Positions 11,579 to 61,890 of a DNA stretch of 64,000 nucleotides are shown here, piece after piece (the first letter of the stretch is position 1; each line of letters starts with the position of its first letter). Source of the DNA: Oscillospiraceae bacterium (GTDB lineage Bacteria; Bacillota; Clostridia; Oscillospirales; CAG-272); NCBI GenBank assembly GCA_015063805.1, contig SVTK01000014.1:7055-71054 (forward strand), read 5' to 3'. The position numbers and the translations under genes were made by a program. The notes under the pieces are model-generated. The model saw only the letters and a list, made by a program, of their open reading frames with translations, was not told the DNA's origin and searched no databases.

Positions 11579-11592
11579 ATGCAGAAGGGGAA

Positions 11593-20402: not shown

Positions 20403-20404
20403 GA

Positions 20405-20577: not shown

Positions 20578-20711
20578 GTACATTGATGGAACTTTTTTGA
20601 AACAAACACGTCCGAATATATAGTCAGAATCAATAAACCGGTATCCGTATGGTGAAATGAATACGTAAAAACGGTTCGGGAAATAAGAATTTGGAAAAGG
20701 AGATTATCTGC

Positions 20712-40044: not shown

Positions 40045-40055
40045 GAACATCATAT

Positions 40056-40084
40056 AGTATACCGCAATTCAGGGAAAATGTCAA
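40056..40084 (-). promoter_or_regulatory. sigma-70-type promoter of tRNA-Gly
   Basis: Reverse complement reads TTGACA, 17 nt, TATACT, ending about 11 nt upstream of the tRNA 5' end. Confidence 0.5.
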
Positions 40085-40125
40085 TGGGAATGCGAAATTT
40101 TTTTGGAAAAAATGCAAGAACCCTC

Positions 40126-40154
40126 TTGCAATCCACGGCGGGTTGTGCTATAAT
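40126..40154 (+). promoter_or_regulatory. sigma-70-type promoter of secG
   Basis: TTGCAA, 17 nt, TATAAT, leaving a leader of about 115 nt. Confidence 0.45.
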
Positions 40155-40276
40155 AGCTATACGTCAGTTTTTGCGTGTGCGGTTTTTGCCGTCCACGGGT
40201 GCCGCTGTCTTTCCGCCGAGGGCAGCTGCCTGCATGAAGATAAAGATGTGCGGCGGGGAAATGGAGTTTACGCGAA

Positions 40277-40522
40277 ATGAATGTTGTTGAAATCATTATC
40301 GGTGTTGCACTTCTGCTGATGGCAGTTTTCCTTGTTGTATCTATTCTGATGCAGTCGGGTAAGGACAAGCGCCTGTCCGGTACCATTGCCGGCGGTGCTG
40401 AGACCTTCTTCGGCAAGGAAAAGGCAAGCACGATGGATAAGGTGCTCTCCAAGGTGACGACGATTGTTGCCATTGTCTTCGCTGTGCTGGTCGTGGTCAT
40501 GTACATGATCCAGGGCCTGTAA
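40277..40522 (+). CDS. secG: preprotein translocase subunit SecG
   Basis: 81 aa with two TM segments. LMQSGKDKRLSGTIAGGAETFFGK is the typical SecG central motif. Confidence 0.85.
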   Translation: MNVVEIIIGVALLLMAVFLVVSILMQSGKDKRLSGTIAGGAETFFGKEKASTMDKVLSKVTTIVAIVFAVLVVVMYMIQGL

Positions 40523-40547
40523 GCACGGCTTTGCCTGTTTGGGCATG

Positions 40548-40596
40548 ACAAAACCGCTTTTGGGTATGCTTTATCCGAGAGCGGTTTTGTTTTTTG
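40548..40596 (+). terminator. intrinsic terminator after secG
   Basis: ACAAAACCGCT / AGCGGTTTTGT stem followed by TTTTT. Confidence 0.65.
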
Positions 40597-40628
40597 AAAA
40601 TCCCACGGAATTTGAAGGAATTGAATCT

Positions 40629-42755: not shown

Positions 42756-42758
42756 TGG

Positions 42759-42790
42759 GAGGGGGGCGCCTGTTCGCCCCCCTTTTTTGT
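42759..42790 (+). terminator. intrinsic terminator after rnr
   Basis: GGGGGGCG / CGCCCCCC stem followed by TTTTTTGTT. Confidence 0.75.
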
Positions 42791-42822
42791 TACCAATAAT
42801 TGCAAAAAAAACCGCGGGGACA

Positions 42823-42851
42823 TTGACAAATCTGTGCTTTTGCGGTACAAT
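42823..42851 (+). promoter_or_regulatory. sigma-70-type promoter of yicC-remA-gmk-rpoZ
   Basis: TTGACA, 17 nt, TACAAT. Confidence 0.5.
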
Positions 42852-42886
42852 AATTATATATATCCATTGACGAGGTGAAAGTGCGC

Positions 42887-43771
42887 ATGCAGAGTATGAC
42901 TGCCTTTGGCCGGGCCGTGAAGACGGTGGCAGGCAAGGAAATTATCGTAGAGATCAAGTCGGTGAACAACCGCTACCTGGATTGCAGCGTGCGGACACCC
43001 CGAAGCTACTCCTTCATTGAGGAAAAGATCAAGCCCCACCTGTTGGCGGCAGGGGTTACCCGGGGAAAGGTTGAGGTCAACCTTTCGGTGAATACGGTGG
43101 ACTCCCCCGAGGTGACGGTGGTGCTGGACGAGGCCTATGCCGCTTCCTATGTGGCCGCGCTTGAGCAGCTGCGGGATCGCTTCGGCCTTAAGGATGATAT
43201 TTCCACCATGCGGGTGGCGGCCAACCGCGAGCTTTTCAACGTGCAGGCTGCCGAGACCGATCCCGAGGAGGCCTGGGGCGATATCTCCGCGGTGCTGGAT
43301 GAAGCGCTGGCGGTGTTCTTGGCCGGCCGCGCCGCGGAAGGTGAGCGTCTTGCCCGGGACCTGGCTGCCAAGCTGGACGGAATCAAGGTGCTGGTGGACC
43401 GCATTGAGGTGCTCTCCCGGGACGATATTGCGGCATACCACGACCGCCTGCTAACCCGTTTGCGCAACGTACTGGAAGACAATCGGGTAACCATTGACGA
43501 AAACCGTATTCTCACCGAGTGTGCCATTTTTGCCGATCGGGTGGCGGTGGACGAAGAGCTGGTGCGCCTGCGCAGTCATTTTGATGCCTTTGCCTCCATT
43601 TCGGCCTCGGCTGAGCCCGTGGGCCGTAAGCTGGACTTTTTGATGCAGGAGATGAACCGGGAGATCAACACCATCGGTTCCAAGTGCTCCAACACCGAGA
43701 TCGCCCATTTGGTGGTGGAGGTCAAGAGCGAGCTGGAAAAGATCAGAGAGCAGATCCAGAATCTGGAGTAA
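42887..43771 (+). CDS. yicC: YicC/YloC family endoribonuclease
   Basis: ATG at 42887 after GAGGTGA. MQSMTAFGRA N-terminus and C-terminal EMNREINTIGSK motif. Confidence 0.85.
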   Translation: MQSMTAFGRAVKTVAGKEIIVEIKSVNNRYLDCSVRTPRSYSFIEEKIKPHLLAAGVTRGKVEVNLSVNTVDSPEVTVVLDEAYAASYVAALEQLRDRFGLKDDISTMRVAANRELFNVQAAETDPEEAWGDISAVLDEALAVFLAGRAAEGERLARDLAAKLDGIKVLVDRIEVLSRDDIAAYHDRLLTRLRNVLEDNRVTIDENRILTECAIFADRVAVDEELVRLRSHFDAFASISASAEPVGRKLDFLMQEMNREINTIGSKCSNTEIAHLVVEVKSELEKIREQIQNLE

Positions 43772-43795
43772 GCCCTCGGAGAAAAGGGGAAAAAT

Positions 43796-44080
43796 ATGAA
43801 ATTCATTAACATCGGCTTTGGCAATATGGTGGCGGTAGATCGAGTGGTAGCTCTGGTCGCCCCCGATTCTGCGCCCATCAAGCGTCTCATTCAGGATGCC
43901 CGGGACGAGGGACGGGTGATCGATGTCAGCTGCGGCCGCCGCACCCGTGCGGTGATCGTGACCGACTCGGAGCACGTGATTCTTTCGGCAATCCAGGCCG
44001 AGACCATTGCCAACCGTCTGGATGACAGCGTGGACGAGGAAGAGACGGCGGAGGAGGAAGACGAGACCGCCGATCAATAA
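43796..44080 (+). CDS. remA: RemA/YlzA (DUF370) family regulator
   Basis: [35 protein letters not shown] is typical RemA. Acidic C-terminal tail. Confidence 0.85.
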
Positions 44081-45214: not shown

Positions 45215-47680
45215 ATGGAAAACGTATACGCCGAAGTCCATGTGCTCGGGGTTCCCGGTCAGGTTGACCGTCGGTATACCTATTTTGTTCCCGCGGCTCT
45301 GCGGGAAGAGATGCGGCCCGGGCTGTTCGTGCGTGTCCCGTTCGGGGGAGGCAACCGCGACCGCATTGCGCTGACGGTTGCCCTCACCGAGGAATATACC
45401 GGCAATATTGAACTAAAGCCCGTGCTGGCAGTCTGTGACGACTGCGTTTCGCTGGATGCGGAACTGCTCGGGCTATGTCTGTTTATGAAGGAGCAGACCC
45501 TATGCACCGTAGGGGATGCGGTTCATGCCATGATTCCCGCCGCAGCACTGGGGAAATTTGTGCGCCGCTTCCGTGCGGTGGCGGGTGCCGCGGTGCCCGA
45601 GGATGCGGCGGGACGGCTGATTTGGGATGCCGTCTCGGCCAAGGGGAGCATGACTTATGACAGCCTGCGGGCGCGGTTCGGCGGTCAGGTGACCGATGCC
45701 TTGAACCGTCTGACCCGTGCAGGGATTCTGCTGTGTGAGACAGAGCTGAAGGAGCCTGCCGACCGAAGGGCTTCCCTGTGGCGGCTGGCGCCGGCTTTGG
45801 CCGGCAAGTCTGCCGAGGAGATCTTCGCCGGAGCGAAGCTCCGCTCGGCGGGGCAGAAGGCGATTGTGGCCGAGCTCTGCGCCGGCGGGGGCAGGGAAGA
45901 AGAGGAGCTGCTCAACGCGGCGGCGGCCTCCCGTACCCAGCTGAAGGCCCTGGCCGGGCGGGGAATGATCGTGGAGGAGCGCGTGGATCTGTGGCAGAAT
46001 CTGCCCGCCGCGCCCACCAAGGATCCCCGGGACAATCGGCTCTCTCCGGCACAGCAGGCGGCTTTTGATACCCTTTCCGCTCTGTATCGGCGGGGAGAGG
46101 CATCGGCCGCGCTGCTCCACGGCGTCACCGGCTCTGGCAAGACCCGGGTGATGCTGTCCATGATCGATGAAGTTCTGCGGGACGGGCGGCAGGTGATCCT
46201 GCTCCTGCCCGAGATTGCGCTGACCCCCCAGTCGGTGGCCATTTTCTGCGCCTATTACGGGGCGCGGGTGGCGGTGATCCACTCGGGACTGTCGGCAGGC
46301 GAGCGGCTGGACACCTATCGCCGCATCCGTGCCGGGGAGGCCGACCTGGTGATCGGCACCCGCTCGGCGGTGTTTGCGCCCCTGCCCAATTTGGGGATGA
46401 TCATCCTCGACGAGGAGCAGGAGCATACCTACAAATCGGACAACGATCCGAAATACCATGCGCGGGATATTGCCCGTTACCGCTGTGCCGAGAAGAAGGC
46501 ACTTCTGCTGCTGGCTTCGGCAACGCCGTCGCTTGAGAGCTACCGCAAGGCCAAGGAAGGGGTATACACCCTGGTGCCCCTCACCGAGCGTTATGGAGGA
46601 GCAGTACTCCCCGATGTGACGGTGGCGGATATGCGGCAGGAGATGCGGGAGGGCAACATCGGCCCCATCGGCCGCACGCTGGATGCGGCGCTGGCCGAGA
46701 CCCTGGCGGCAGGGGAGCAGGCGATCCTGTTCCTGAACCGGCGGGGGTATCACACCGGACTTTCCTGCCGTTCCTGCGGCGGGAACGTAACCTGCCCCAA
46801 CTGCTCGGTGTCCATGACCTACCACAAGCATGAGCGGCACCCCAAGGGAGGATACCTGGTCTGCCATTGGTGCGGCGCGCGGATGGATGTGCCCGAGGAA
46901 TGTCCCGCCTGCGGCTCGTCCCACCTGTCCTTTATGGGCTACGGGACCCAGCAGCTTGAGGAGGAGCTCTCCCGCCGCTACCCCGGTGCGCGGATTCTGC
47001 GGATGGATACCGATACCACCTCCACCAAGCTTGCCCATGAAACCCTGCTGGGGCGTTTTCGCGCGGGGGAGGCGGATATTTTGCTGGGGACCCAGATGGT
47101 GACCAAGGGGCATGACTTCCCCAATGTGACCCTGGTGGGGGTACTGCTGGCAGATATGTCGCTGTATGTGGACGATTATCGGGCGGCGGAGCGGACCTTT
47201 TCGCTGCTGACCCAGGTGATTGGCCGTGCCGGCCGCGCCGAGAAGCGGGGGCGTGCGGTGATTCAGACCAACAATCCCGATCACGAGGTGATCCGCCTGG
47301 CCTGCGCCCAGGATTACCCTGCCTTTTATGCCAGGGAGGAGCGGCTGCGTCGGGCTTTGGTGTTCCCGCCTTTCTGCGATGTGGTGCTGCTGACCCTGAC
47401 GTCCTCCGACGAGCAGGCGCTGATGTTGGCCACTGACCTGCTGCGGCGGGGCTTGCCGAAGATTGCCGAACGGCAGTTTTCGGATGTGGCTTATGTGGCG
47501 TTTGGTCCCTTTGAGGCGCCGGTTTATCGGGTGGAGGGGCGCTATCGGATGCGGATGGTGCTCAAGTGCAAGCTGAACCGGCGGAGCCGGGCTATGTTTG
47601 CTGAGGTTTATTCCCGTTTCACCGCCAAGGCGCCGGCAAAGACGGTGCTGACGGTGGATTATAATCCCACGAATTTGTGA
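45215..47680 (+). CDS. priA: primosomal protein N' (replication restart helicase PriA)
   Basis: Walker A GVTGSGKT, DEEQ box, and Zn-binding CRSCG...CPNC / CHWCG...CPACG. Confidence 0.9.
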   Translation: MENVYAEVHVLGVPGQVDRRYTYFVPAALREEMRPGLFVRVPFGGGNRDRIALTVALTEEYTGNIELKPVLAVCDDCVSLDAELLGLCLFMKEQTLCTVGDAVHAMIPAAALGKFVRRFRAVAGAAVPEDAAGRLIWDAVSAKGSMTYDSLRARFGGQVTDALNRLTRAGILLCETELKEPADRRASLWRLAPALAGKSAEEIFAGAKLRSAGQKAIVAELCAGGGREEEELLNAAAASRTQLKALAGRGMIVEERVDLWQNLPAAPTKDPRDNRLSPAQQAAFDTLSALYRRGEASAALLHGVTGSGKTRVMLSMIDEVLRDGRQVILLLPEIALTPQSVAIFCAYYGARVAVIHSGLSAGERLDTYRRIRAGEADLVIGTRSAVFAPLPNLGMIILDEEQEHTYKSDNDPKYHARDIARYRCAEKKALLLLASATPSLESYRKAKEGVYTLVPLTERYGGAVLPDVTVADMRQEMREGNIGPIGRTLDAALAETLAAGEQAILFLNRRGYHTGLSCRSCGGNVTCPNCSVSMTYHKHERHPKGGYLVCHWCGARMDVPEECPACGSSHLSFMGYGTQQLEEELSRRYPGARILRMDTDTTSTKLAHETLLGRFRAGEADILLGTQMVTKGHDFPNVTLVGVLLADMSLYVDDYRAAERTFSLLTQVIGRAGRAEKRGRAVIQTNNPDHEVIRLACAQDYPAFYAREERLRRALVFPPFCDVVLLTLTSSDEQALMLATDLLRRGLPKIAERQFSDVAYVAFGPFEAPVYRVEGRYRMRMVLKCKLNRRSRAMFAEVYSRFTAKAPAKTVLTVDYNPTNL

Positions 47681-47684
47681 GGTG

Positions 47685-47756
47685 CGGGGCGCCGCCCCGG
47701 ACCCTGCCCGAACCCCTTTTTGAAAAAAGGGTTTCGGGGCTTCCCAAAAACTTTCG
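47685..47756. repeat. intergenic palindromic repeat, single unit
   Basis: Short hairpin CGGGGCGCCGCCCCG, palindrome CCCGAACCCCTTTTTGAAAAAAGGGTTTCGGG, and tail CTTCCCAAAAACTTTC. Starts 5 nt after the priA stop. Confidence 0.65.
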
Positions 47757-49975: not shown

Positions 49976-51259
49976 ATGGGGGAAAAGATGCAAGCGGCCC
50001 CCAAGTCCCCCCGTGCCCTGGCGCTGGAACTGCTCCGGGACTGGGCCGAGAAGGGGCAGTATCCCAACATTGCCCTGGACCATGCCTTGAAGCGGAATGC
50101 CCTCGGCGGCCCTGACCGGGCCTTGCTCACCACCCTGGTTTACGGGGTGATCGAGCGGGCACTGACTTTGGATGCCATCATTGATACGCTGGCCGATCGT
50201 GAGATTGAGCCGGCGGTGCGGGATATTCTGCGGCTGGGGATCTATCAGATGCGGTATCTCGACCGCATTCCCGCCCACGCGGCGGTGAACGAAACGGTGG
50301 CTTTGGCGCCCCGTCGGGTGCGGGGATTTGTGAACGCCATCCTGCGGAGCTACGGGCGGCGGGCGGCGGAGTTCGTCTTTGCCGCGCCGGCTGATGCGGC
50401 ATCCATGTCGGTGGCCTACTCGGTGTCTGAGCCCATCTGCGCGGCATTTATTGAGGCCTTCGGGCTTGAGCGCGCGTCCTCGATTCTGGCGGCGTTTGGA
50501 AAAAATCCGCCCCTGAATCTGCGGGTGAACACCCTGCGGGTGAGCCGGGAGGATTACCTCGCGCGGTTGGCCGAAGCGGAGATCGAGGCTTCTCCCTGCG
50601 GGGTACACAGCGGGATTCGGCTGGCGGGATCCATGAATCCCACCGAGCTCCCCGGCTTTTCGGCGGGGGACTGCTTTGTGCAGGACGAAGCTTCCCAGCG
50701 CTGTGTGGCGGCGTTGGGGGCGCAGGCAGGTGAGCTGGTGCTGGACCTCTGCGCCTGTCCCGGGGCGAAGTCCTTCGGGGCGGCCATTGATATGGAAAAC
50801 TGCGGTCGGGTGATCTCGGCCGATCTACATGAGAACAAGCTTTCGCTGATTGCGGCGGGAGCGGAGCGGCTGGGGATCTCCATCATCGAGACGGCGGCGC
50901 GGGATGCCCGTTTGCCGGTGGGAGAATTGGTGGGGCGCGCCGACCGTGTGATCTGCGATGTGCCCTGCTCCGGGCTTGGGGTGCTGGGCAAAAAGCCCGA
51001 TTTGCGCTACAAGTCCATTGATGCGGTGGGGCGGCTGCCGGCCATTCAGGCGGCGATCCTGGAGACAGCGGCGGGTTATGTTCGGGCAGGGGGGCGACTG
51101 GTGTATTCCACCTGTACTCTGCTTCCTGCCGAAAATGCCGGAGTGACGGGGCCGTTTTTGGCGGCACATCCCGAATTTACGGTGATCGAGGAGCGGACGT
51201 TGGCGCCCGACACCGATGGAACGGACGGATTTTACTATTGTGCGATGGAGCGGAGATAG
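49976..51259 (+). CDS. rsmB: 16S rRNA (cytosine967-C5)-methyltransferase
   Basis: ATG at 49976 after AGGAGG. NusB-like N-terminal domain. SAM-binding DLCACPGAKS and catalytic DVPCSGLGV. Confidence 0.85.
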   Translation: MGEKMQAAPKSPRALALELLRDWAEKGQYPNIALDHALKRNALGGPDRALLTTLVYGVIERALTLDAIIDTLADREIEPAVRDILRLGIYQMRYLDRIPAHAAVNETVALAPRRVRGFVNAILRSYGRRAAEFVFAAPADAASMSVAYSVSEPICAAFIEAFGLERASSILAAFGKNPPLNLRVNTLRVSREDYLARLAEAEIEASPCGVHSGIRLAGSMNPTELPGFSAGDCFVQDEASQRCVAALGAQAGELVLDLCACPGAKSFGAAIDMENCGRVISADLHENKLSLIAAGAERLGISIIETAARDARLPVGELVGRADRVICDVPCSGLGVLGKKPDLRYKSIDAVGRLPAIQAAILETAAGYVRAGGRLVYSTCTLLPAENAGVTGPFLAAHPEFTVIEERTLAPDTDGTDGFYYCAMERR

Positions 51260-51263: not shown

Positions 51264-51336
51264 CGGGGCTCTGCCCCGTACCCCGCTGGGGGAGCCTTTT
51301 GAAAAAGGCTCCCCCAGACCCCTGCGAAAACTTTCC
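51264..51336. repeat. intergenic palindromic repeat, single unit
   Basis: Short hairpin CGGGGCTCTGCCCCG, palindrome CTGGGGGAGCCTTTTGAAAAAGGCTCCCCCAG, and tail ACCCCTGCGAAAACTTTCC. Confidence 0.65.
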
Positions 51337-51362: not shown

Positions 51363-52394
51363 ATGAATCTACTTTCTTTGACGCTGCCTGAGCTTGAGGG
51401 GCGGATGGCTGAGCTGGGCCAGCCGCGATACCGCGCGGGGCAGATTTTTGAACAGCTGCACCGCGGGACTGCACCCCGGGATATGACCAATCTGCCGCTG
51501 GCACTGCGTGAGGTGCTGATGGCGGACTATCATCTGCCCGCTGTTGCCCGCAAGCTGGTGTCGGCGGTGGATGGAACGATCAAGTATCTTTTCTCCCTCG
51601 CCGACGGCAACTGCGTGGAGAGTGTGCTGATGCAGTACAAGCACGGGGTAACCATATGTCTCAGCACCCAGGTAGGCTGTCGGATGGGATGTGCCTTCTG
51701 TGCCTCCACCATTGGGGGCAAGGTGCGGGACCTGGAAGCGGGGGAGCTCATCGGACAGATCCTGGCCGCCCAGGCAGACAGCGGTCTGCGGGTTGGGGGC
51801 ATTGTGCTCATGGGCATCGGCGAGCCGCTGGATAACTATGACAACGTATTGCGCTTTCTGCGCCTGGTGGGAGATCCCAAGGGACTGAACATCGGATACC
51901 GGCACATTTCGCTCTCCACCTGCGGGCTTTGCGACAAGATCGCACAGCTGGCCGAGGAGGACCTGCCCATTACCCTGTCCATCTCCCTCCACGCCCCCGA
52001 TGATGAAACCCGGTCGGCTCTGATGCCGGTGAACCGCAAATGGGGAATCGACACGCTGCTGTCCACCTGCCGGGACTATTGGAACAAAACAGGACGGCGC
52101 ATTTCCTTTGAATATACCCTGATCGCGGGAGAGAACGATTCCCTCGCCCAGGCGGAAAAATTGGCGGAACGCCTCAATCGCGGCTTGCGCAGCCGTACCG
52201 AGACCATGCCCATTCATGTGAATCTTATCCCCGTGAATCCTGTGGGTGAGCGGCAGTTCTCGGCCTCGGACGGGCGTGCCATCAAGGCCTTCGCCGCCGT
52301 GCTGGAGAAGCGCGGCATCCGTGCCACTGTGCGCCGCAAGCTGGGCAGCGACATCGATGCCTCCTGCGGCCAGCTGCGCCGGGGCGAGGTGTAA
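51363..52394 (+). CDS. rlmN: 23S rRNA/tRNA (adenine-C2)-methyltransferase RlmN
   Basis: Radical SAM CRMGCAFCAS and RYRAGQIF N-terminal motif. ATG at 51363; the track ORF starts at TTG 51357. Confidence 0.9.
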   Translation: MNLLSLTLPELEGRMAELGQPRYRAGQIFEQLHRGTAPRDMTNLPLALREVLMADYHLPAVARKLVSAVDGTIKYLFSLADGNCVESVLMQYKHGVTICLSTQVGCRMGCAFCASTIGGKVRDLEAGELIGQILAAQADSGLRVGGIVLMGIGEPLDNYDNVLRFLRLVGDPKGLNIGYRHISLSTCGLCDKIAQLAEEDLPITLSISLHAPDDETRSALMPVNRKWGIDTLLSTCRDYWNKTGRRISFEYTLIAGENDSLAQAEKLAERLNRGLRSRTETMPIHVNLIPVNPVGERQFSASDGRAIKAFAAVLEKRGIRATVRRKLGSDIDASCGQLRRGEV

Positions 52395-52556
52395 GACCTT
52401 GGGGAGGTGCCTTTTGGGGGGCGCCTTTTGAAAAAGGCTCCCCCCAACCCCCCCGCGAAAACTTTCAAAAAGGGGCGTGCCTGAAAGTTTTTGCGGGATT
52501 CTTAAGGGAGCTTTTTTCAAAAAGCTCCCTTAAGTGGGGTATGGGGCAACGCCCCA
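52395..52556. repeat. composite intergenic palindromic repeat (two inverted units)
   Basis: GACCTTGGGGAGG... then palindrome GGGGGGCGCCTTTTGAAAAAGGCTCCCCCC and tail CCCCGCGAAAACTTTC. Facing it are GAAAGTTTTTGCGGG, palindrome CTTAAGGGAGCTTTTTTCAAAAAGCTCCCTTAAG and short hairpin GGGGCAACGCCCC. Begins at the base after the rlmN stop. Confidence 0.7.
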
Positions 52557-52580
52557 TTATACAAAGAAAGGACGTTACAT

Positions 52581-54380
52581 ATGTATAATTCCGCACTTCG
52601 ACAGATCACCCATGAAGCCGACCTCTGTGTAGTCGGCGGAGGCCTGGCGGGACTTTGTGCCGCTGTGGCAGCGGCCCGCGGGGGAATCCGCGTGATCCTC
52701 ATCCAGGACCGCCCGGTACTTGGCGGCAACGCATCCAGCGAGATCCGGATGTGGGTGCGAGGGGCGAAGGGCAAGTGCAACCGGGAGACCGGCATCCTCT
52801 CCGAGATGGAGGAAGAGAATATCTACCGCAACCCCACCCTGGAGGCACCTCTTTGGGACAGCGTCATGTTCGGCACCGCCCTGGGAGAGAGGAATCTGGA
52901 GCTGATCATGAACTGTTCGGTGGCAGATGCCGGTACCGAGGACGGGCGCATTGTATCGGTGACGGGCTGGCAGCTCACCACCTATACCTGGCACACCGTG
53001 AAGGCAAAATACTTTGCCGATTGCTCCGGGGACAGCATCCTGGCTCCTTTGGTGGGGGCGCGCTACCGTGTGGGCCGGGAGGCTGAGTCAGAGTTCGGCG
53101 AGTCCATCGGCCATGCAGAGGCTGACCGCAAGACCATGGGTATGTCCTGCCTGCTTCAGGCGAAGGAAACCGATCACCCCGTAAAATTCATTCCTCCCGA
53201 TTGGGCTAATGTGTACGAATCCGATGACGCCTTCATTGCGGCGGTGTCCCCGCTGACCGGGAAGGCCCTGATCCGCGACCACAAGGTGGGCACCTCCGGG
53301 GGCAACCTGTGGTGGATGGAGCTGGGCGGTGAGGATGACAGCATCCATGACACCGAGCGCCTGCGTGACGAACTGCTGAAGGTTGCCTTTGGGGTGTGGG
53401 ATCACATCAAAAACCGCGGCGACCACGGTTATGAAAACTGGAAGCTGGAATGGGTGGGCTTTCTGCCCGGCAAGCGGGAATCCCGTCGGTATGAGGGGGG
53501 CCTGATGCTCACCCAAAATCATATTGCCGAGGGCGGAAAATTCGACGATGTGGTGGCCTTCGGCGGTTGGCCCATGGACGATCACAATCCCTGCGGCATC
53601 CGCATGACAGCGGCCAGGGAGGAGCCATCTATTCTGTATAAAGTGCCTTCTCCCTACGGCATTCCTTATCGTGTGCTCTATTCGGCGGATGTGGCCAACC
53701 TCTTCATGGCGGGGCGCAACATCAGCGCCACCCATGCTGCCCTTTCCTCTACCCGCGTCATGGCCACCTGTTCGCTCATGGGCCAGGCGGTGGGTACGGC
53801 GGCGGCCATTGCCTGCCGACAGGGCATTGATCCTGCCGAAATCTATCCCACATATGTCCCCGAGCTGCAGGCCTGTCTGATGGAGGACAACTGCTTCCTG
53901 CCCGGCCTGCGCCGGGAGATGCCCGCGCTGACCCGCCGGGCTAAGATCGACCTGTCCGCGGATGCGCTGGCCCTCCTGCAGGACGGCATCGAGCGGCCCC
54001 GGGAGGATGCCGACCATGCGGCGGAGCTTCCCCTGGGTGGGGAGATCACCTTTTCCTTCGATGCGCCCGAGACGGTGCACGAGCTGCGGCTGGTGTTTGA
54101 TCCCGACTTCACTCGGGAGACCATCACCCCCAACCGGAAGATGCAGGTCTTCGCCCAGCGCCTCCACACGGGATTTGATTTTGTCCCGGTGAAGGTTGCG
54201 GCCACCCTGGTGCGTCGCTTTACGGTGCTGGCCGACGGCGTCGAGGTGGCGGCGGTGGGAGAGAACTATCATTCGCTGGTGAAGCTTCCCCTGAACGTGA
54301 CGGCGAAGACGCTGACCGTGCGGTTCGAGGAAACCTGGGGCGCGGAGAGCGTGAGACTGTATGCTTGTGATGTGAAATAA
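52581..54380 (+). CDS. FAD-dependent oxidoreductase (PF12831-like)
   Basis: Dinucleotide-binding DLCVVGGGLAGLCAAVAAARGG and LIQDRPVLGGNASSE; 599 aa. Confidence 0.75.
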   Translation: MYNSALRQITHEADLCVVGGGLAGLCAAVAAARGGIRVILIQDRPVLGGNASSEIRMWVRGAKGKCNRETGILSEMEEENIYRNPTLEAPLWDSVMFGTALGERNLELIMNCSVADAGTEDGRIVSVTGWQLTTYTWHTVKAKYFADCSGDSILAPLVGARYRVGREAESEFGESIGHAEADRKTMGMSCLLQAKETDHPVKFIPPDWANVYESDDAFIAAVSPLTGKALIRDHKVGTSGGNLWWMELGGEDDSIHDTERLRDELLKVAFGVWDHIKNRGDHGYENWKLEWVGFLPGKRESRRYEGGLMLTQNHIAEGGKFDDVVAFGGWPMDDHNPCGIRMTAAREEPSILYKVPSPYGIPYRVLYSADVANLFMAGRNISATHAALSSTRVMATCSLMGQAVGTAAAIACRQGIDPAEIYPTYVPELQACLMEDNCFLPGLRREMPALTRRAKIDLSADALALLQDGIERPREDADHAAELPLGGEITFSFDAPETVHELRLVFDPDFTRETITPNRKMQVFAQRLHTGFDFVPVKVAATLVRRFTVLADGVEVAAVGENYHSLVKLPLNVTAKTLTVRFEETWGAESVRLYACDVK

Positions 54381-54384
54381 TAAG

Positions 54385-54503
54385 ACCTTGGGGGGAGCCT
54401 TTTGAAAAAGCTCCCCCCTTTTTGCGACGTTTGGACCGTTCTCGGTCCAAACTCGGCGGAAGACAGCGAATCCGCTGTCTTCCTTCCCCCCGCGAAAACT
54501 TTC
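54385..54503. repeat. intergenic palindromic repeat unit interrupted by two unrelated hairpins
   Basis: GACCTTGGGGGGAGCCTTTTGAAAAAGCTCCCCCC, then hairpins TTTGGACCGTTCTCGGTCCAAA and GGAAGACAGCGAATCCGCTGTCTTCC, then the family tail CCCCCCGCGAAAACTTTC. Confidence 0.5.
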
Positions 54504-55824
54504 AGGCGGGGGTGTTTTGGTATTCGTTTTCGAATGTTATGTTCCAGTCGCCTGATGCCTGTGCGGAGTAGTAGTTGATGACCGCGTCAAAGGTGTCGCT
54601 GCCGTCGGGGAGGTAATGGAAGCATGTATAGGCTTCATCGCCGGCAGTGCGCATCATGATGCGGGGTGCCATCGGTTCAAAGGGGAGCTCGCCATCGTAT
54701 GGCGACCTCGACTCGATCACCAGATGCGGCTCAAGGAAGGCGTAATACTCTGTGCTGTAGTTGATGTTGTATTCGTATTTGATCCCGTTTTGTTCGCGGG
54801 TTGAGGTGGAAAACAACAGATAACCCTGCGGGAAGTTTTGTTCAAGGGTCTCCTTATCGTATGCCCCCATGGGATTGTTATAGCCGACTGCGGTGATCAT
54901 GCCTTGGGTTACCCCGTCGGGAACTGTGAATTCCTGGTTCAGCGTTACGACTTTGCCCGGTTGGGGCAGTTCGATGGGTACAACCACCGGCGTGTCGGGG
55001 AAGAAGCTTGAGAATGTAATGCTCTTCGATACAAAGCGCACGATTTCAGCGGACGGTGTTATATCGGCGGTGAAGATGTTTGTTTTGCCGATTCTCTTCA
55101 GTTGAAAAAATTTCTCATTTCTGTCAACCACATAGAAGTTGCCCACGGGGGTGACCGAGCCGCGTCCGTCGGCATATTCAAGTTCAACGGCAAATGTGGT
55201 AAGATCGTCGGTGAGGGGGATCAGCGTCAGACGCATGCCGCATTGTTCGGTGGTATATTTTTGGTACTGGGCGGGCATGCGGCTGAATTTTACGAGCTTG
55301 CCGTCAAACACTATACCTTCGGCCGCCTGTTTGCTTGAAATGTTCGGGATTTTGATTTGATACATACCGCACATGGTGCTGTTTGTGGCAACTTGGGTGA
55401 CCTCAATGAGGGAAAGCTCTGCATCGGGATACGGTATCAGTTCGTGCGCATCCATCTCGTCGTAGCGGACGGTGGATTTAATCCAAAACTGTACCGTGCC
55501 CTCCAGCCAAAAACCGTATGCGGTGGTATAACGGGCATTGTCGCCGCTTGTATTGTCCAGCATCATGTACAGCGGCTCTGCGGTGCCGTCCTCAACATTG
55601 ACCACACCGATGCCCGGGAAAAACCATTGTCTGAGCGCGGGAGAAGCTGATACTACGGTAATACCTGCTGTAAGAATCAGGATCGCGGCGATGATCGGGA
55701 TGGGATGCAGGCGAACATTGCGGCGCGGTACTGCACGTTCACGGATATTTGCTTTCATTTTGTTGAGCTGATTTTGATCGGGAGAAAGTGTGTCAAACAG
55801 ATGTTTCATGTTTCTGTGATTCAT
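54502..55824 (-). CDS. putative membrane-anchored anti-sigma factor / sigma-associated protein
   Basis: Starts 1 nt after the sigma-factor stop, with an AAGGAGG RBS inside the sigma gene's 3' end. Short cytoplasmic N-terminus, one TM segment (IPIIAAILILTAGITVVSA), and a roughly 370-aa extracytoplasmic domain of unknown family. Confidence 0.5.
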   Translation of the reverse strand: MNHRNMKHLFDTLSPDQNQLNKMKANIRERAVPRRNVRLHPIPIIAAILILTAGITVVSASPALRQWFFPGIGVVNVEDGTAEPLYMMLDNTSGDNARYTTAYGFWLEGTVQFWIKSTVRYDEMDAHELIPYPDAELSLIEVTQVATNSTMCGMYQIKIPNISSKQAAEGIVFDGKLVKFSRMPAQYQKYTTEQCGMRLTLIPLTDDLTTFAVELEYADGRGSVTPVGNFYVVDRNEKFFQLKRIGKTNIFTADITPSAEIVRFVSKSITFSSFFPDTPVVVPIELPQPGKVVTLNQEFTVPDGVTQGMITAVGYNNPMGAYDKETLEQNFPQGYLLFSTSTREQNGIKYEYNINYSTEYYAFLEPHLVIESRSPYDGELPFEPMAPRIMMRTAGDEAYTCFHYLPDGSDTFDAVINYYSAQASGDWNITFENEYQNTPA

Positions 55825-55825
55825 G

Positions 55826-56296
55826 TTAATCCTCCTTGATGATTTTTCGCATCAATTCGCGGGCCCGCTGAAGTTGGGTACGGACAGTACTTTCATTGCG
55901 CCCGAGAAGTGCAGCGATGTGGGCGGTGGCCATGTCTTCATAGTAGAACAGATAGACCACTTCGCGGTATTTTTGCGGCAGTCTGCGCAGAATTTCGGCT
56001 GTCTCCAGCGGCTTGGCATCGTCGGAATACGACACAAGTGTTTCGGGGATGTCCTCAAAATCAACGCGCCCAATGCGGTTGAGTGTGCGCTTGATGTTGA
56101 TGCACTCGTTGTGTGCGGCGCGCAGAAAGTAGGCCTTTTCATGCTCGTCCGACGCAAATTCCACATTGCTTCGGAGATAGCGCAGGAAAATATTCTGTAC
56201 TGCATCCTCCGCATCCTCGCGCCGCCCGAGCTTTAGATAGCACATGCGGTAGATTCGTGCTGCGTTGCGTTTGTATACCGAGTCGATGTCATTCAT
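55826..56296 (-). CDS. ECF-type RNA polymerase sigma-70 family factor
   Basis: Region 2 (AEDAVQNIFLRYL) and region 4 HTH (YEDMATAHIAALLGRNESTVRTQLQRAR). Start placed at ATG 56296; the track ORF extends to 56353. Confidence 0.85.
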   Translation of the reverse strand: MNDIDSVYKRNAARIYRMCYLKLGRREDAEDAVQNIFLRYLRSNVEFASDEHEKAYFLRAAHNECINIKRTLNRIGRVDFEDIPETLVSYSDDAKPLETAEILRRLPQKYREVVYLFYYEDMATAHIAALLGRNESTVRTQLQRARELMRKIIKED

Positions 56297-56395
56297 GGAT
56301 GTCACATCCTTTCCGGGGGTGTGTCTGAAATGCATTTCTGATATATTATACAACCCGGGGAGCGGTTTTGTCTGCTTGGAGTGGAAAATTTTTTT

Positions 56396-56520
56396 GACCT
56401 TGGGGAGGGGCCTTTTGAAAAAGGCCCCTCCCCAAACCCTTCCGCCAAAACTTTCAAACGAGGCGCGCCGGGAAGTTTTCGCGGGGGTTCGGGGGAGCCT
56501 TTTTCAAAAGGCTCCCCCGA
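56396..56520. repeat. composite intergenic palindromic repeat (two inverted units)
   Basis: GACCTTGGGGAGGGGCCTTTTGAAAAAGGCCCCTCCCC with tail AAACCCTTCCGCCAAAACTTTC, facing GGAAGTTTTCGCGGGGGTTC and palindrome GGGGGAGCCTTTTTCAAAAGGCTCCCCC. Confidence 0.7.
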
Positions 56521-56608
56521 TGGGCGGCATCCCGCAAGCAAACCTTGACAAATTCTCGCTTTTGCGGCATAATATAGGCATAGACCCATACCCGAAAGGA
56601 TGATACCC

Positions 56609-58678: not shown

Positions 58679-61069
58679 ATGAAGGATTGCAGAAGCAGTT
58701 TTGTTTTGTTTGACGGTGCCATGGGCACCATGCTCCAGGCTCGCGGCCTGCGGGGCGGGGAAGTGCCCGAGGCGCTGAACCTCACCCACCCCGATGTGGT
58801 GCGGGCGATCCATGCCGAGTATGCGGCGGCGGGTGCAGATGTGATCACCGCCAACACCTTCGGTGCTAACCGGCGGAAGCTGGCAGAGGGGGATGCCTCT
58901 CTCTCGGTGGAGGCGGTGGTTTCCGCCGGTGTGAAGCTGGCCCGGGAAGCCGCCGATAGGGCGGGACGGGATGTGGCGGTGGCGTTGGACATCGGTCCAA
59001 GCGGCGCACTGCTGGAGCCCCTGGGAACCCTTTCCTTTGACGATGCCTACGACCTGTTCGCTGAAGTGGTGCGGGCAGGTGCGGCGGCAGGTGCCGATCT
59101 GGTGCTCATCGAGACCATGGCCGACCTGCTGGAGGCCAAGGCGGCGCTGCTGGCGGCCAAGGAAAACTGCGATCTGCCGGTGTTTGTCACCATGACCTTC
59201 TCGGCGGATGGGCGCACCTTCCTGGGCACCGATCCTGCCGCGGCGGCGGTGACGCTCTCGTCCCTGGGGGCGGATGCCATCGGACTGAACTGTTCCCTCG
59301 GGCCGGTGGAGGCACTGCCGTTGGTGCGGAAAATTCTTGACTATGCCACGGTTCCCGTGATGGTACAGCCCAACGCCGGCCTGCCTCGCATTGAGGGGGA
59401 GAAAACCGTGTACGATATTACCCCCGAGGCCTTTGTGGAGACCTGCTCCGCCATGGCGGCGGAGGGGGTCACGGTGCTGGGGGGCTGCTGCGGCACTTCC
59501 CCCGCCTTCATTCGGGGGCTTCGGCAGATGCTGGACGGACGTGCACCTGCTCCCCGCACTCCGGTTCGCCGCACGGTGTTTGCGGGAACGGGGGGCGTGG
59601 TGGAGCTGGCCGGGGCGAATATTGCCGTCATCGGCGAGCGGATCAACCCCACGGGGAAGAAGAAGCTCAAGGAAGCCCTGCGCAATCACGACGATGCTTA
59701 TGTGGTGAGCGAGGCTATCGCCCAGCAGGAGGCAGGCGCGGATATTCTGGATGTAAACGCCGGCCTGCCCGAGCTGGATGAGCCTGCCGTCCTCCGCCGT
59801 TTGGTGGGGGCGATCCAGGCGGTGTCCCCGCTGCCCCTGCAGATCGACAGCTCCGATCCCGCTGCCATCGAAGCAGCGGTGCGGGTCTATTGCGGCAAGC
59901 CCATCATCAATTCGGTCAACGGCAAGGAAGAGAGCCTTGTCGCCGTTCTGCCCATTGCCCGCCGTTACGGCGCGGCGGTGGTGGGGCTGACTTTGGACGA
60001 GGGGGGCATCCCCGATACCGCCGAGGGGCGGCTGGCCATTGCCCGGCGCATTCTCGATCGCGCTCTCGCCCTGGGCATTCCCCGGGAGGATGTGCTCATC
60101 GACTGCCTGGTGCTCACCGCTTCCACCAACCAGGCCCAGGTTCGCGAGACCCTGCGGGCCGTTTCCATGGTGAAGCGGGAGCTGGGGCTTCGCACGGTGC
60201 TGGGGGTAAGCAATGTCTCCTTCGGCCTGCCTGCCCGGGAGACCCTCAATGCCACTTTCCTCTCCGCCGCTTTTGGCGCGGGGCTGGATATGCCCATTCT
60301 CAATCCCCTGGCCGCGCCCTATCGCAATGCCGTTGCGGCCTATCGGGTGATCTGCGGACAGGATGCGGGGGCTGCCGCCTTCATTGAAGCCGCTCCGGCT
60401 ATGGTCACTGCCGCCGCGCCTGCGGCGAATGCCCCCGCGGCCGCCGATGCCGCTCCCGAGGGGCTGGCCGGCTACATCCTCAGCGGACGAAAGAAGGAAA
60501 CGGCAGAAGCGGTGCGGACCATGCTGGCTGATCTGCCCCCCATGGAGATCATCAACGGGCATCTGATCCCGGCGCTGGACGAGGTTGGCGTGCGGTTTGC
60601 CCAGGGCAAGCTTTTCCTGCCCCAGCTCATGGCTTCGGCCGATGCGGCCAAGGCGGGCTTCGAGCTTTTGCGGGCTGTCCCCAACGCCGAGACCGAGACC
60701 CGCGGGGAGATCCTGCTGGCCACGGTGAAGGGGGATATTCACGACATCGGTAAGAACATTGTGCGGATGCTGCTGGAAAATTACGGCTACGGGGTCATTG
60801 ACCTCGGCCGCGACGTGCCCCCGGAGGAGATTGTTGCCGCCGCGCTGGCACACCGGGTGAAGCTGGTGGGACTGAGCGCTCTCATGACCACCACGGTGGG
60901 GGCCATGAAGGAGACGATTGATGCCCTGCGGGCTGCAGGTGCCGATTGCCGGGTCATGGTGGGCGGCGCGGTGCTCACTCCCGAATATGCCAAGCTGGTA
61001 GGTGCCGATTTCTACGCCGCCGATGCGGCGGAGGCCGCACGGATCGCGGGTGAGGTATTCGATGCATAA
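58679..61069 (+). CDS. metH: cobalamin-dependent methionine synthase (Hcy-binding, pterin-binding and B12-binding modules; no activation domain)
   Basis: FDGAMGTMLQ and GGCCGT (Hcy module), NVSFGLP (pterin module), and B12-binding GDIHDIGKNIV (DxHxxG), SALMTTT. Confidence 0.9.
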   Translation: MKDCRSSFVLFDGAMGTMLQARGLRGGEVPEALNLTHPDVVRAIHAEYAAAGADVITANTFGANRRKLAEGDASLSVEAVVSAGVKLAREAADRAGRDVAVALDIGPSGALLEPLGTLSFDDAYDLFAEVVRAGAAAGADLVLIETMADLLEAKAALLAAKENCDLPVFVTMTFSADGRTFLGTDPAAAAVTLSSLGADAIGLNCSLGPVEALPLVRKILDYATVPVMVQPNAGLPRIEGEKTVYDITPEAFVETCSAMAAEGVTVLGGCCGTSPAFIRGLRQMLDGRAPAPRTPVRRTVFAGTGGVVELAGANIAVIGERINPTGKKKLKEALRNHDDAYVVSEAIAQQEAGADILDVNAGLPELDEPAVLRRLVGAIQAVSPLPLQIDSSDPAAIEAAVRVYCGKPIINSVNGKEESLVAVLPIARRYGAAVVGLTLDEGGIPDTAEGRLAIARRILDRALALGIPREDVLIDCLVLTASTNQAQVRETLRAVSMVKRELGLRTVLGVSNVSFGLPARETLNATFLSAAFGAGLDMPILNPLAAPYRNAVAAYRVICGQDAGAAAFIEAAPAMVTAAAPAANAPAAADAAPEGLAGYILSGRKKETAEAVRTMLADLPPMEIINGHLIPALDEVGVRFAQGKLFLPQLMASADAAKAGFELLRAVPNAETETRGEILLATVKGDIHDIGKNIVRMLLENYGYGVIDLGRDVPPEEIVAAALAHRVKLVGLSALMTTTVGAMKETIDALRAAGADCRVMVGGAVLTPEYAKLVGADFYAADAAEAARIAGEVFDA

Positions 61070-61081
61070 AAGGAGGACGGT

Positions 61082-61330
61082 ATGGATTTTGTCCTGGGTA
61101 TACTGGCCTTTTACGGCTGTATTCTTTTGTCTGTTGTCGCTGTTGTGGTCAACGCGGTAGATCTGTGCCGGGCAAAGAAGAAAAACAAGCTGACGCCCGG
61201 TGCGGTGTCGGAGGAACAGATACGGGATTATAAAACCGCATTGATCTCTTTTGCGGCAATCGCGTGTGTGCTTTTGGCGGTGGTAATTGGTGTTATCTCT
61301 TTGCTGGATACGGCCGTTGCCTATATGTGA
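61082..61330 (+). CDS. small two-TM membrane protein, paralog 1 of 3
   Basis: 82 aa with AAGGAGG RBS. Two hydrophobic helices flank the basic loop CRAKKKNKLTPGAVSEEQIRDYK. No family recognised. Confidence 0.6.
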   Translation: MDFVLGILAFYGCILLSVVAVVVNAVDLCRAKKKNKLTPGAVSEEQIRDYKTALISFAAIACVLLAVVIGVISLLDTAVAYM

Positions 61331-61357
61331 AGTATTTGGTCCATAAAGGAGAACGTT

Positions 61358-61606
61358 ATGGAATTATTGCTGGGTATGCTGGCCTTTTACGGCGTTACCA
61401 TCTGGACTATCGTCTCCGCTGTGGTAAACGCGGTGAAATTTTGTGGGGCAAAGAAGAAAAACAAGCTGACCCCCGGCACCGTATCGAAGGAGGAAATGCG
61501 GGAGTACAAAATCGAACTGATTTCCTCTTTGGCAATCGCGTGTCTGCTTACGGCGGTAGTGACCGGTGTCACGGTTCTGATGTACACGGCCGTTGCCTAT
61601 ATGTGA
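61358..61606 (+). CDS. small two-TM membrane protein, paralog 2 of 3
   Basis: 82 aa, roughly 60% identical to paralog 1 by hand count. AAAGGAG RBS. Confidence 0.6.
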   Translation: MELLLGMLAFYGVTIWTIVSAVVNAVKFCGAKKKNKLTPGTVSKEEMREYKIELISSLAIACLLTAVVTGVTVLMYTAVAYM

Positions 61607-61634
61607 GGTATTCGACGCATAAAAGGAGGACGAT

Positions 61635-61883
61635 ATGGGATATATTCTGTCACAAATTTTGTTTTACGGCATTCCCCTCGGGGTGCTTGCCTTTTTCATC
61701 GTGAGCCTGGTGCGCTTCTGTGGGGGAAGAAAGGCGAATATTCTGACCCCCGGTGCGGTACCGGCGGAGGAAATGCGGGCGCGGAAGATCATGCTCGTGG
61801 TTTCTTCGGTGATCGTTGGCCTGCTGGCGGCGGTGGTGATCGGTTTTACGATTCTGCTGTTCACGGCCATCGCCTTTATGTGA
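61635..61883 (+). CDS. small two-TM membrane protein, paralog 3 of 3
   Basis: 82 aa, more diverged but with the same architecture (FCGGRKANILTPGAVPAEEMRARK loop). AAGGAGG RBS. Confidence 0.6.
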   Translation: MGYILSQILFYGIPLGVLAFFIVSLVRFCGGRKANILTPGAVPAEEMRARKIMLVVSSVIVGLLAAVVIGFTILLFTAIAFM

Positions 61884-61890
61884 GGTGGAT

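Follow-up and report, generated by a model that had tools for sequence, protein, structure and literature searches.

A stretch of 64,000 nucleotides from an Oscillospiraceae bacterium (contig SVTK01000014.1, positions 7,055 to 71,054; in the following "the window") contains twelve copies, referred to as units, of a real and apparently undescribed family of intergenic repeats which is found in many gut Clostridia. As to its nature, we see about an even chance that the family represents interspersed repeats of the REP/BoxC kind which are constrained in structure at the DNA level and display the layout of an intrastrand triplex. The units of the window were located by means of a covariance model built from 46 non-redundant units of the window and of other genomes, with filters switched off and E<0.01. 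Within the 64 kb the model yields exactly 12 units at 8 loci, precisely those which an earlier note on this DNA had listed, and no further matches at this threshold; weaker opposite-strand echoes of the units' palindromes are also obtained. A search for the core CTTTTTGAAAAAG allowing up to 2 mismatches gives 24 matches over both strands compared to 0.94 expected ones, and 23 of the 24 are situated at these loci. The exact sequence AAAACTTTC occurs 8 times in the window (0.25 expected), each time inside a unit. None of the 12 units lies inside a long open reading frame (ORF) taken as a gene; all are intergenic, with a density of about one per 5 kb, and they include four tail-to-tail pairs, among them the two inward-facing units at 52395-52556.

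Read with its tail at the 3' end, a unit may open with a small hairpin (GGGGC-nnn-GCCCC) and A(A/C)CCC(C/T)GC. Next comes the main hairpin, whose arms of 7-18 bp enclose an invariant TTTTGAAAAA, and a C-rich spacer then leads to the tail, (G/C)C-(A/G)-AAAA-C-TTYC. The loop of the main module is an invariant AT palindrome, TTTT-GA-AAAA, whose centre of symmetry is the dinucleotide GA (loop UGAA) rather than a single G. Because the palindrome is centred on GA, the core always contains one A more than T. The core TTTTGAAAAA and the tail AAAACTTYC are located on the same strand, and the orientation of GA agrees with that of the tail in all 12 window units. Across genomes of 40-64% GC, core and tail are the sole invariant parts of the unit. 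The motif GACCTT turned out to be 5' flank and not an alternative module; with the succeeding GGGG the main stem begins or, in loci L030 and L094, the small hairpin. Unrelated short GC-rich hairpins are observed between main stem and tail at 27050-27074 and, approximately, at 54428-54452 and 54459-54484; the joint between stem and tail seems to tolerate or to attract insertions. Minimal units, in which a stem of 5-7 bp around the core is directly followed by GCRAAAACTTTC, are present in low-GC genomes, sometimes tandemly repeated (L007, L022, L033, L049, L061), and may be ancestral or reduced forms.

The apex of the main hairpin is conserved while its stem co-varies, as the earlier note had proposed. 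In the alignment of the 46 units, which were selected for at least 7 paired positions so that the percentage of pairing (not the diversity of the outer pair types) is partly built in, 95.4% of the stem cells pair and 11 of the 14 pairs show two-sided changes. The number of cells with double changes amounts to 166 compared to 50.6 in shuffled alignments, none of 500 shuffles reaching 166, and in slid controls pairing drops to 53-74%. In 699 kb of related loci the model produces 103 hits. Among 87 distinct model hits (100 loci) 95.6% of the cells pair, two-sided changes occur in 13 of the 14 pairs, and 318 double-change cells stand against 89.8.

Three features were not mentioned in the earlier note, namely a base asymmetry of the arms, a mirrored third segment and a coupling between core type and tail type. 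The two arms of the main hairpin differ in base composition. Of 35 non-redundant units, 31 have a left arm rich in purines (p = 3.5e-6), and the spacer consists to 70% of pyrimidines. In the layout of an intrastrand triple helix, a purine tract is followed by the pyrimidine tract with which it forms Watson-Crick pairs and by a third tract in mirror symmetry. In the units, the spacer mirrors the right arm of the same unit and thereby equals the left arm's parallel complement; examples are CCTCCCC-AAA-CCCCTCC, CCTCCTCA / ACTCCTCC, CTCCTCCTTCCCCC / CCCCCCATCCTCC and TTTCCCCC / CCCCTTT. Upon local alignment of the spacer with the reversed right arm a score of 5.26 is obtained within the own unit compared to 4.03 across units (permutation standard deviation 0.14, p<0.0002), while the reverse complement gives no signal in this alignment. 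The mirror signal holds under GC-matched permutation, in high-GC loci alone and against within-unit shuffles, and the mirror alignment is better than the direct one in 18 units and worse in 3 (p = 0.0015). Shared descent within subfamilies can produce a correlation between segments but not such an identity of mirrored bases; hence, the identity indicates a real constraint. Left arms frequently harbour Shine-Dalgarno-like GGAGG or GGAGGTG, for instance at 27159-27170 (-) and 52401-52412, with CCTCC in the right arm and spacer; CCTCC is itself mirror-symmetric and accounts for part of the mirror signal. The small hairpin follows the mirror rule as well (p = 0.0002), albeit with exceptions: GGGGC/GCCCC is accompanied by CCCCG, GGGAC/GTCCC by CCCTG (three genomes), GGAAC/GTTCC by CCTTG and GGGGT/ACCCC by CCCCA.

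A further coupling links the core to the tail, the type of the former predicting that of the latter in 84 of 93 units. Where the core is closed by C:G, the base which precedes the A-run of the tail is never A but G (23 units) or C (4 units), whereas T:A-closed cores are accompanied by a tail A in 61 of 66 units. This does not arise from ascertainment since the pattern used for collecting the units let either tail join either core. The tail constitutes the parallel complement of the core (AAAAA-C-TTT versus TTTTT-G-AAA), and their coupling would provide exactly the triplets expected at the AT core on the G-rich strand. Runs of canonical triplets (C.G-C or T.A-T, at most one mismatch) reach a median of 6 and a maximum of 12, whereas shuffling of the third strand gives a mean of 3.9. 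Selection for an intramolecular triple helix, built twice per unit, may be what the mirrored and co-varying third segment reflects, an interpretation that we put forward tentatively and ourselves consider rather doubtful.

The mismatches within the stems bear on the question of whether the constraint acts on DNA or on RNA. G:U pairs make up only about 8 of 1200 cells among the 87 distinct model hits, and the internal mismatches on the tail-bearing strand comprise 21 A:C or C:A compared to 7 G:T or T:G (p = 0.0125); the A:C mismatches would be wobble pairs only on the complementary strand. Both the scarcity of G:U and the mismatch bias are opposite to what selection on the gene-sense transcript would produce and argue against it. 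The pattern is in line with a constraint at the level of the DNA, perhaps of its G-rich strand, as is the position of one pair of units in a divergent promoter region. Among the options which the earlier note had offered, that of an RNA hairpin is weakened hereby.

Seven units of the window start 0-14 nt past a stop codon and in the orientation of the respective gene. Six of these loci had been recognised before, namely those behind a small ORF (stop at 11578), mnmG (27000), priA (47680), rsmB (51259), rlmN (52394) and a FAD oxidoreductase gene (54380); the seventh unit is that at 577-632. The inverted partners at 52483-52557, 56471-56522 and probably 27115-27174 lie downstream of no identified gene, and the pair at 56396-56522, instead of following the 3' end of a gene, separates the starts of two divergent genes. 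Across the loci, a co-directional long ORF ends no more than 50 nt upstream of 25 of 60 units and a converging ORF ends beyond the tail of 15 of 60. Solo units in tandem gene contexts are co-oriented in 16 cases versus 6, and convergent spacers outnumber divergent ones by 12 to 4, the underlying gene calls being crude and ORF-based and the orientation signals only moderate. Canonical T-tract terminators are present elsewhere in the window; those reported before at 30549 and 22144 were found again, one was found at 20449, and others are located at 28071, 39912 (-) and 63888. In contrast, the terminator scan, which covered the window except for 40001-44000, detected no canonical terminator in the unit-bearing spacers. 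No unit was flagged in gene-sense orientation; the one weak signal, at 27134-27171, is on the strand opposite to the orientation of its unit. The earlier statement that no U-tract follows the stem holds for 11 of the 12 units but not for that at 54384-54503, where inspection by eye reveals TTTTT right after the main stem.

The behaviour of the units among close relatives was followed in four syntenic loci with RlmN identities of 98% (L196), 95% (L197), 94% (L198) and 88% (L199). All 5 unit-bearing spacers which the window shares with L196, L197 and L198 are occupied, so that the presence/absence polymorphism considered in the earlier note is not observed at these sites. Between priA and def, L196-L198 contain orthologous units with altered or replaced stems. 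In L198 a different self-complementary stem, GTCAAGACCC, takes the place of CCCGAAACCC, and the spacer segment AATCCC matches this new stem, the subtype of which also occurs in L100. Between rsmB and rlmN every genome has a stem of its own, with a decayed core in L198, and after rlmN of L197 the hairpin of the second unit is lost with its flanks being kept. The assembly of L199 carries the family (L099 originates from the same assembly), yet there is no intact unit in 16 kb: the rsmB-rlmN spacer harbours a decayed minimal unit, CGCCGCTTTTGCAAAACGGGCG...CCCGTAAAACATAC, the priA-def spacer lacks 53 nt right after the stop, and rlmN is followed by a canonical bidirectional terminator with no unit. 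No sign of a recent unit insertion is seen in the comparisons among L196-L199. We conclude that units are long-lived at their sites and become remodelled, most simply by recombination with other copies. Within 52581-56353, blocks of genes have been gained or lost with junctions exactly at units, as the FAD oxidoreductase gene (52581-54380) is missing in L198 and the convergent sigma-70/anti-sigma pair (54502-56353) in both L197 and L198. In L197 the unit type which in the window is found upstream of a GH77 gene directly follows the FAD oxidoreductase stop, and such a junction is what recombination between two GACCTTGGGG ends would leave. The inspected flanks of units show no consistent direct repeat, and no target-site duplication could be defined. 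The ends of unit pairs read ...TAAGACCTTGGGG / CCCCAAGGTCTTA, where the flanking TA(A) belongs to the inverted symmetry and likewise serves as stop codon; in solo units a second end of this type is lacking.

Beyond the window, a scan of one genome per species with a core-gap-tail pattern gave at least 111 loci, and at least 63 loci among the matches listed contain bona fide stem-bearing units. The latter derive from at least roughly 35-40 uncultured and cultured assemblies (a count of record titles). The labels of the carriers among the matches listed are Clostridia, Eubacteriales, Oscillospiraceae, Acutalibacter caecimuris, Anaerofilum, Porcipelethomonas and Ruminococcus, a few bins being doubtful, and the local GC content of the unit-bearing loci ranges from 40 to 64%. 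The listed pattern matches in other phyla have no stems and look like chance. Among lineages the distribution is patchy; 80 metagenome loci of RlmN relatives (55-69% identity) are free of units but for one marginal AT-rich palindrome (L169) and were therefore of no use for assessing insertion polymorphism. The stem subtypes CTTAAGGGAGC, CCAGAGGGGC, GGGGAGGTGC and GTCAAGRCCC recur across species. Three or four units form tandem arrays in L064 (125-nt period), L088 and L049. At 6340-6820 of L064, which belongs to the cultured Acutalibacter caecimuris M00118, four tandem 125-nt copies directly follow a gene, each period consisting of a unit plus a conserved 50-nt linker, which makes this locus convenient for experiments. 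In phage and plasmid collections no convincing copies of the family were found, 2.9 million viral contigs yielding 5 pattern matches, which are uninspected, and plasmids one weak match. Clustering of 114 proteins encoded next to units revealed no recurrent neighbour, only pairs of orthologues. In a tblastn search of the sampled DNA, an IS608 TnpA probe (a lead only, of low sensitivity) did not match any Y1 transposase. One gene bracketed by unit pairs has, by eye, the look of a thioredoxin-reductase-type flavoprotein gene.

The individual units of the window are composed as follows. Unit 1 (492-561, +; model match 511-561, 67.6 bits) is of the two-hairpin type and consists of the small hairpin GGGGCGCTGCCCC, AAACCCCGC, the main hairpin CCAGAGGGGC-TTTTTGAAAAAA-GCCCCTCTGG, the spacer ACTCC and the tail GCAAAAACGTTC. 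Its inverted tail-to-tail partner, unit 2 (577-632, -; model match 577-630 (-), 38.7 bits), reads GACCGT, GGGGGAAC-core-GTTCCCCC, ACACCCCCAC and a degenerate tail, AAAAAACTGC, and adjoins the TAA stop (633-635) of the minus-strand gene 633-1817. The solo unit 3 (11592-11640, +; 55.5 bits) has a short stem, GCAGGGGCC-core-GGCCCCCTGC, succeeded by ACCCTC and AAAAACTTTC. It begins 14 nt past the stop of a 25-aa small ORF (11501-11578; translation MKVVVIRSPKLLAPFLRRWFGIKKT) whose resemblance to SpoVM suggests that the organism forms spores. Unit 4 (27005-27100, +; model match 27011-27100, 50.8 bits), which possesses a main stem of 17 bp, begins 4 nt past the ORF 25120-27000 (mnmG according to the earlier note), and the extra hairpin at 27050-27074 is inserted between its stem and its tail GCGAAAACTTCC. 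The inverted partner, unit 5 (27115-27174, -; 70.4 bits), is made up of GACCTT, TTGGGGAGGTGC-core-GCACCTCCCCAA, ACCCCTCC and GCAAAAACTTTC; its triplet run of 9 is the longest among the window units. Unit 6 (47685-47755, +; model match 47705-47755, 55.4 bits), a solo unit of the two-hairpin type, begins 5 nt past the priA stop (47678-47680; PriA domains were found in the syntenic locus L196), and its main stem CCCGAACCCC is among the few with a pyrimidine-rich left arm.

The top model match, 71.3 bits, is unit 7 (51264-51335, +), a further solo unit of the two-hairpin type between rsmB (stop 51257-51259) and rlmN (start 51363). Folded as RNA it is predicted to adopt two hairpins with -47.5 kcal/mol (z = -6.0). 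Unit 8 (52395-52466, +; model match 52413-52466, 66.5 bits) starts with the first base after the rlmN stop; its 5' portion GACCTTGGGGAGGTGCCTTTTG, an arm truncated from another unit, is joined to a main hairpin, a spacer and a tail which are complete. Unit 9 (52483-52557, -; 68.7 bits), its inverted partner, is of the two-hairpin type and carries the stem CTTAAGGGAGC, a type also present in other genomes (L040, L064, L088). The DNA fold calculated for 52392-52560 (-57.7 kcal/mol, z = -8.5) includes the central tail-to-tail hairpin which the earlier note had envisaged for facing units. In unit 10 (54384-54503, +; model matches 54389-54427 and 54456-54503) GACCTT and the main hairpin are followed by TTTTT, two unrelated inserted hairpins and the tail CCCCCCGCGAAAACTTTC. 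It begins 3 nt past the FAD oxidoreductase stop, and its tail adjoins the stop (54502-54504) of the converging gene 54502-55824. Unit 11 (56396-56455, +; 66.1 bits), beginning with GACCTT and TTGGGGAGGGGCC-core, and its inverted partner unit 12 (56471-56522, -; 69.4 bits) occupy a divergent promoter region between the start of a sigma-factor gene and the promoter of the GH77 gene; promoter-like sites surround them at 56374-56345 (-) and 56545-56573 (+).

Apart from the repeat family, several features of the window deserve mention. The ORF 17053-19929 (infB/IF-2-like) contains in its N-terminal region, at 17251-17933, about 15 copies of AEAKAA (18-nt period) and then about 8 copies of a 12-residue repeat (36-nt period). 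At 9421-9615, the ORF 7435-9639 encodes at the C-terminus the pattern D-x-D-G-D-G-x-P-N-x-x-D in 39-nt repeats, which have the look of thrombospondin type 3 calcium-binding repeats. Positions 20001-22000 form a low-GC island (47.7% compared to about 60% elsewhere). The ORF 20691-22067, which the island holds, starts with a hydrophobic N-terminus and a subsequent Cys, by eye lipoprotein-like, and includes QETIP repeats (15-nt period, 20791-20904). Three tandem 276-nt repeats at 61069-61886 each encode a seemingly hydrophobic, membrane-like protein of 82 aa (61082-61330, 61358-61606, 61635-61883); L196 has two such 82-aa ORFs plus one of 46 aa, and L197 and L198 have one copy each.

How might a unit of this kind behave? 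The units consist of one or two modules, in each of which a loop joins a purine-rich arm to its Watson-Crick pyrimidine-rich partner and a short linker rich in A leads on to a third, likewise pyrimidine-rich segment which mirrors the second arm. When single-stranded during replication or transcription, or when extruded by supercoiling at the AT-rich centre, each strand would fold into a very stable hairpin, and the third segment could occupy the major groove of this hairpin to give an intrastrand triplex. The tail-bearing strand, with the order purine-pyrimidine-third strand, would adopt the class III pyrimidine motif, which needs protonated cytosines. The G-rich complementary strand, in which the order is third strand-purine-pyrimidine (class I), would give a purine-motif/T.A-T triplex stable at neutral pH; its basal part would be formed by G.G-C and A.A-T triplets and its AT core by T.A-T, with a GC dinucleotide at the switch of the purine strand. 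Units would sit where they are tolerated, mostly just after stops, and persist for long. Recombination between copies would remodel them, leading to the replacement of whole stems, the deletion of hairpins and tandem arrays, and the units would serve as break or recombination points for the gain and loss of genes. Those which are transcribed would provide the mRNA with a strong 3' hairpin which, as in the case of REP, probably slows 3' exonucleases and dampens read-through. Stabilisation or attenuation at transcript 3' ends is, in our analysis, likely a secondary effect and not the feature under selection.

A number of points weigh against such a DNA-level repeat with a triplex layout. Both triplex and cruciform are putative, the typical triplet runs being short (5-7 triplets), and on the tail-bearing strand several cytosines would have to be protonated. 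The triplex of the related TMECO element was undetected in double-stranded DNA and in vivo (PMC4666352). In the sampled loci, neither a mobilising enzyme nor a target-site duplication nor a clean empty site was found. The loci outside the window were picked by a pattern requiring core and tail, which overstates the conservation of these two parts there. The mismatch asymmetry amounts to 28 events which may not be independent. Finally, the conservation of sites, the kept hairpins, the proximity to stops and the co-orientation with genes (25 co-directional ORF ends versus 15 converging ones and 16 co-oriented solo units versus 6, based on the crude gene calls) equally fit a selected RNA 3' element.

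According to this alternative, the main rival reading, which we rate as possible though clearly on the unlikely side, the units act at transcript 3' ends, where their hairpins, maybe as an RNA triple helix with the C/U-rich segment, block 3'-5' exonucleases, or where they bring about a stop or attenuation without a U-tract, perhaps through Rho loading on C-rich single-stranded segments. It accounts for the seven units which directly follow a stop in the orientation of the gene, for the lack of canonical terminators in unit-bearing spacers of a genome which has them elsewhere, and for L199, where a bidirectional terminator is present after rlmN and a unit is not. The high stability of the RNA hairpins in unit 7, the preservation of units and pairing at orthologous sites and the excess of co-directional ORF ends point in the same direction, and pyrimidine-motif triplexes are possible in RNA (PMC4666352). 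Yet G:U pairs are nearly absent, and on the transcribed strand they are outnumbered by A:C mismatches, whereas selection on this RNA would predict the reverse. Moreover, 11 of 12 units have no U-tract, the inverted partners and the pair between divergent promoters remain unexplained, and the related BoxC/PIT elements show no terminator activity (PMC4666352).

Two other explanations appear improbable to us. The units might be miniature inverted-repeat transposable elements (MITEs) or halves of these, moved by a transposase encoded elsewhere, with the pairs as complete elements which have the ends TAAGACCTTGGGG...CCCCAAGGTCTTA and insert at TA or TAA. The size of the pairs (130-170 bp with long inverted arms), the TA(A) preceding 9 of 12 GACCKT-type ends (units 2 and 10 included), the patchy distribution with the same stem subtypes in different species and the exchange of a stem for another subtype at the orthologous priA-def site of L198 are in line with this. 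Against it stands that solo units with one GACCTT-type or hairpin end and one tail end are common, that the TAA is also simply a stop codon with no direct target duplication definable, and that presence/absence polymorphism is not seen at 94-98% identity; nor was a recurrent transposase found among the 114 neighbours or a match to Y1, and the viral and plasmid collections furnished only the few matches mentioned above. Just as improbable, in our estimation, are arrays of binding sites for a host protein, such as a nucleoid-associated protein, a topoisomerase or a hairpin-specific HUH/RAYT-type enzyme, which would read core and tail while the stem presents them. Gyrase, IHF and Pol I are known binding partners of REPs, on which RAYT enzymes act as well. 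In favour of such a role, core and tail are the sole parts which stay invariant over such a range of GC contents, and the asymmetric GA centre keeps its orientation relative to the tail in all 12 window units. No candidate protein was found near the units, however, and binding sites would leave the mirrored co-varying third segment and the purine/pyrimidine asymmetry unexplained. The likeness of the core to known operators such as the CodY box is only loose, being off by one position and wrongly spaced. Two further assignments were rejected by eye: TTGAAA in core or tail is not accompanied by a suitably spaced -10 element of a promoter, and the spacing does not suit a sigma-54 site.

If selection for a triple helix were true, this would be the first bacterial repeat family for which covariation across many species backs three-stranded pairing. 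The triplex would alternate between strands and would constitute a programmed DNA structure by which replication or transcription is paused and gene boundaries become prone to recombination; if formed on the transcript instead, it would be a bacterial counterpart of the ENE/MALAT1-type 3'-end triple helices which hide the RNA 3' tail from exonucleases. Whether intrastrand triplexes are selected for in bacteria has been open since the PIT/BoxC work, in which the copies were too uniform for covariation. Blocks which vary while keeping both Watson-Crick and mirror relations offer a natural test set, with Acutalibacter caecimuris as a cultured host. Oscillospirales of the gut are abundant, but most of them have not been cultured and hardly any of their non-coding DNA is annotated. 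The family thus bears on annotation and, as units are placed at many gene boundaries, on assembly breaks in metagenome bins and on genome rearrangement.

With respect to known systems, the units could be assigned to no named family, in agreement with the earlier note. In Rfam 15 no family reaches its gathering threshold on the units, and the sole match in the window at curated thresholds is a tRNA gene (39974-40044, -). The best sub-threshold match is RF02354 BjrC80, a small RNA of Bradyrhizobiaceae, with 44 bits at 56397-56540 compared to a curated cut-off of 80. This likeness consists in a series of GGGG...CCCC hairpins and generic GC richness, involves only the most GC-rich pair and does not extend to the AT core and the tail. 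A literature search on the core sequence, on REP/RAYT in Firmicutes/Ruminococcaceae and on intergenic repeats of Oscillospiraceae found no paper describing the family. With intrinsic terminators the units share a GC-rich hairpin just downstream of stops, but their T- and A-runs are placed inside the hairpin apex instead of flanking it, and it is the apex which is conserved while the stem varies. Like MITEs of Firmicutes and Neisseria (RUP, BOX, Correia) they are short, non-coding, intergenic and mosaic, with long hairpins; unlike in these, no terminal inverted repeats with target duplication could be defined, no insertion polymorphism is seen among close relatives, solo half-units are common, and no parent insertion sequence was found.

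The earlier note had compared the units to a REP/BIME- or MITE-like system, and this interpretation is partly supported, its REP/BIME-like reading being right in kind but incomplete. In common with REP/BIME, they are mosaic extragenic palindromes in many copies, often right after stops, which give stable transcript hairpins; they occur singly, in alternating-orientation (head-to-head) clusters with variable linkers and in tandem arrays, and their sites are conserved in related species. They deviate in that the GTAG-type 5' head of REPs is absent, the 46-unit alignment showing no conserved 5' head at all, and in that the palindrome is long and near-perfect whereas REPs have an imperfect one. 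On the gene-sense strand it is the 3' side of the hairpin which carries the conserved single-stranded motif, the sampled DNA revealed no RAYT/Y1 gene, and core and tail are shared by many species whereas REP families are usually confined to a single one.

Elements of the BoxC/PIT/TMECO type (Hoyne & Maher 2000; Holder et al. 2015), known from E. coli and further Proteobacteria, are G/C-rich motifs of three blocks which lie between genes, often as inverted pairs of two subtypes; a TMECO single strand forms a triplex in vitro, the elements show neither promoter nor terminator activity, and they are tied to local hairpin-keeping deletions and rearranged neighbourhoods (PMC4666352). The ITxF search of that study (PMC4666352), limited to loops of 1-6 nt and stems of at least 6, would miss the present units. 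The TMECO consensus 5'-CCCTCNCCC N3-6 GGGNGAGGG N3 GGGNGAGGG has 0 matches on either strand of the window. The block order differs, being pyrimidine-purine-purine (class II) in TMECO and purine-pyrimidine-pyrimidine (class III), or purine-purine-pyrimidine (class I) on the other strand, in the units. Furthermore, the first loop of the latter is a conserved AT palindrome of 10-12 nt which extends the hairpin, up to two modules are joined to a conserved tail, the hosts belong to the Bacillota, and the blocks vary and co-vary between copies whereas those of TMECO are nearly identical. Shared by both are the intergenic location, the G/C-richness, the multiple copies and the three blocks of purine, pyrimidine and mirrored third, as well as the inverted pairs, the patchy occurrence between close relatives independent of phages, plasmids and transposons, the local deletions which keep the hairpin and the rearranged neighbourhoods. 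Because of the arm asymmetry, the mirrored third segment and the core-tail coupling, the closest known analogue of the family is therefore BoxC/PIT/TMECO and not only REP.

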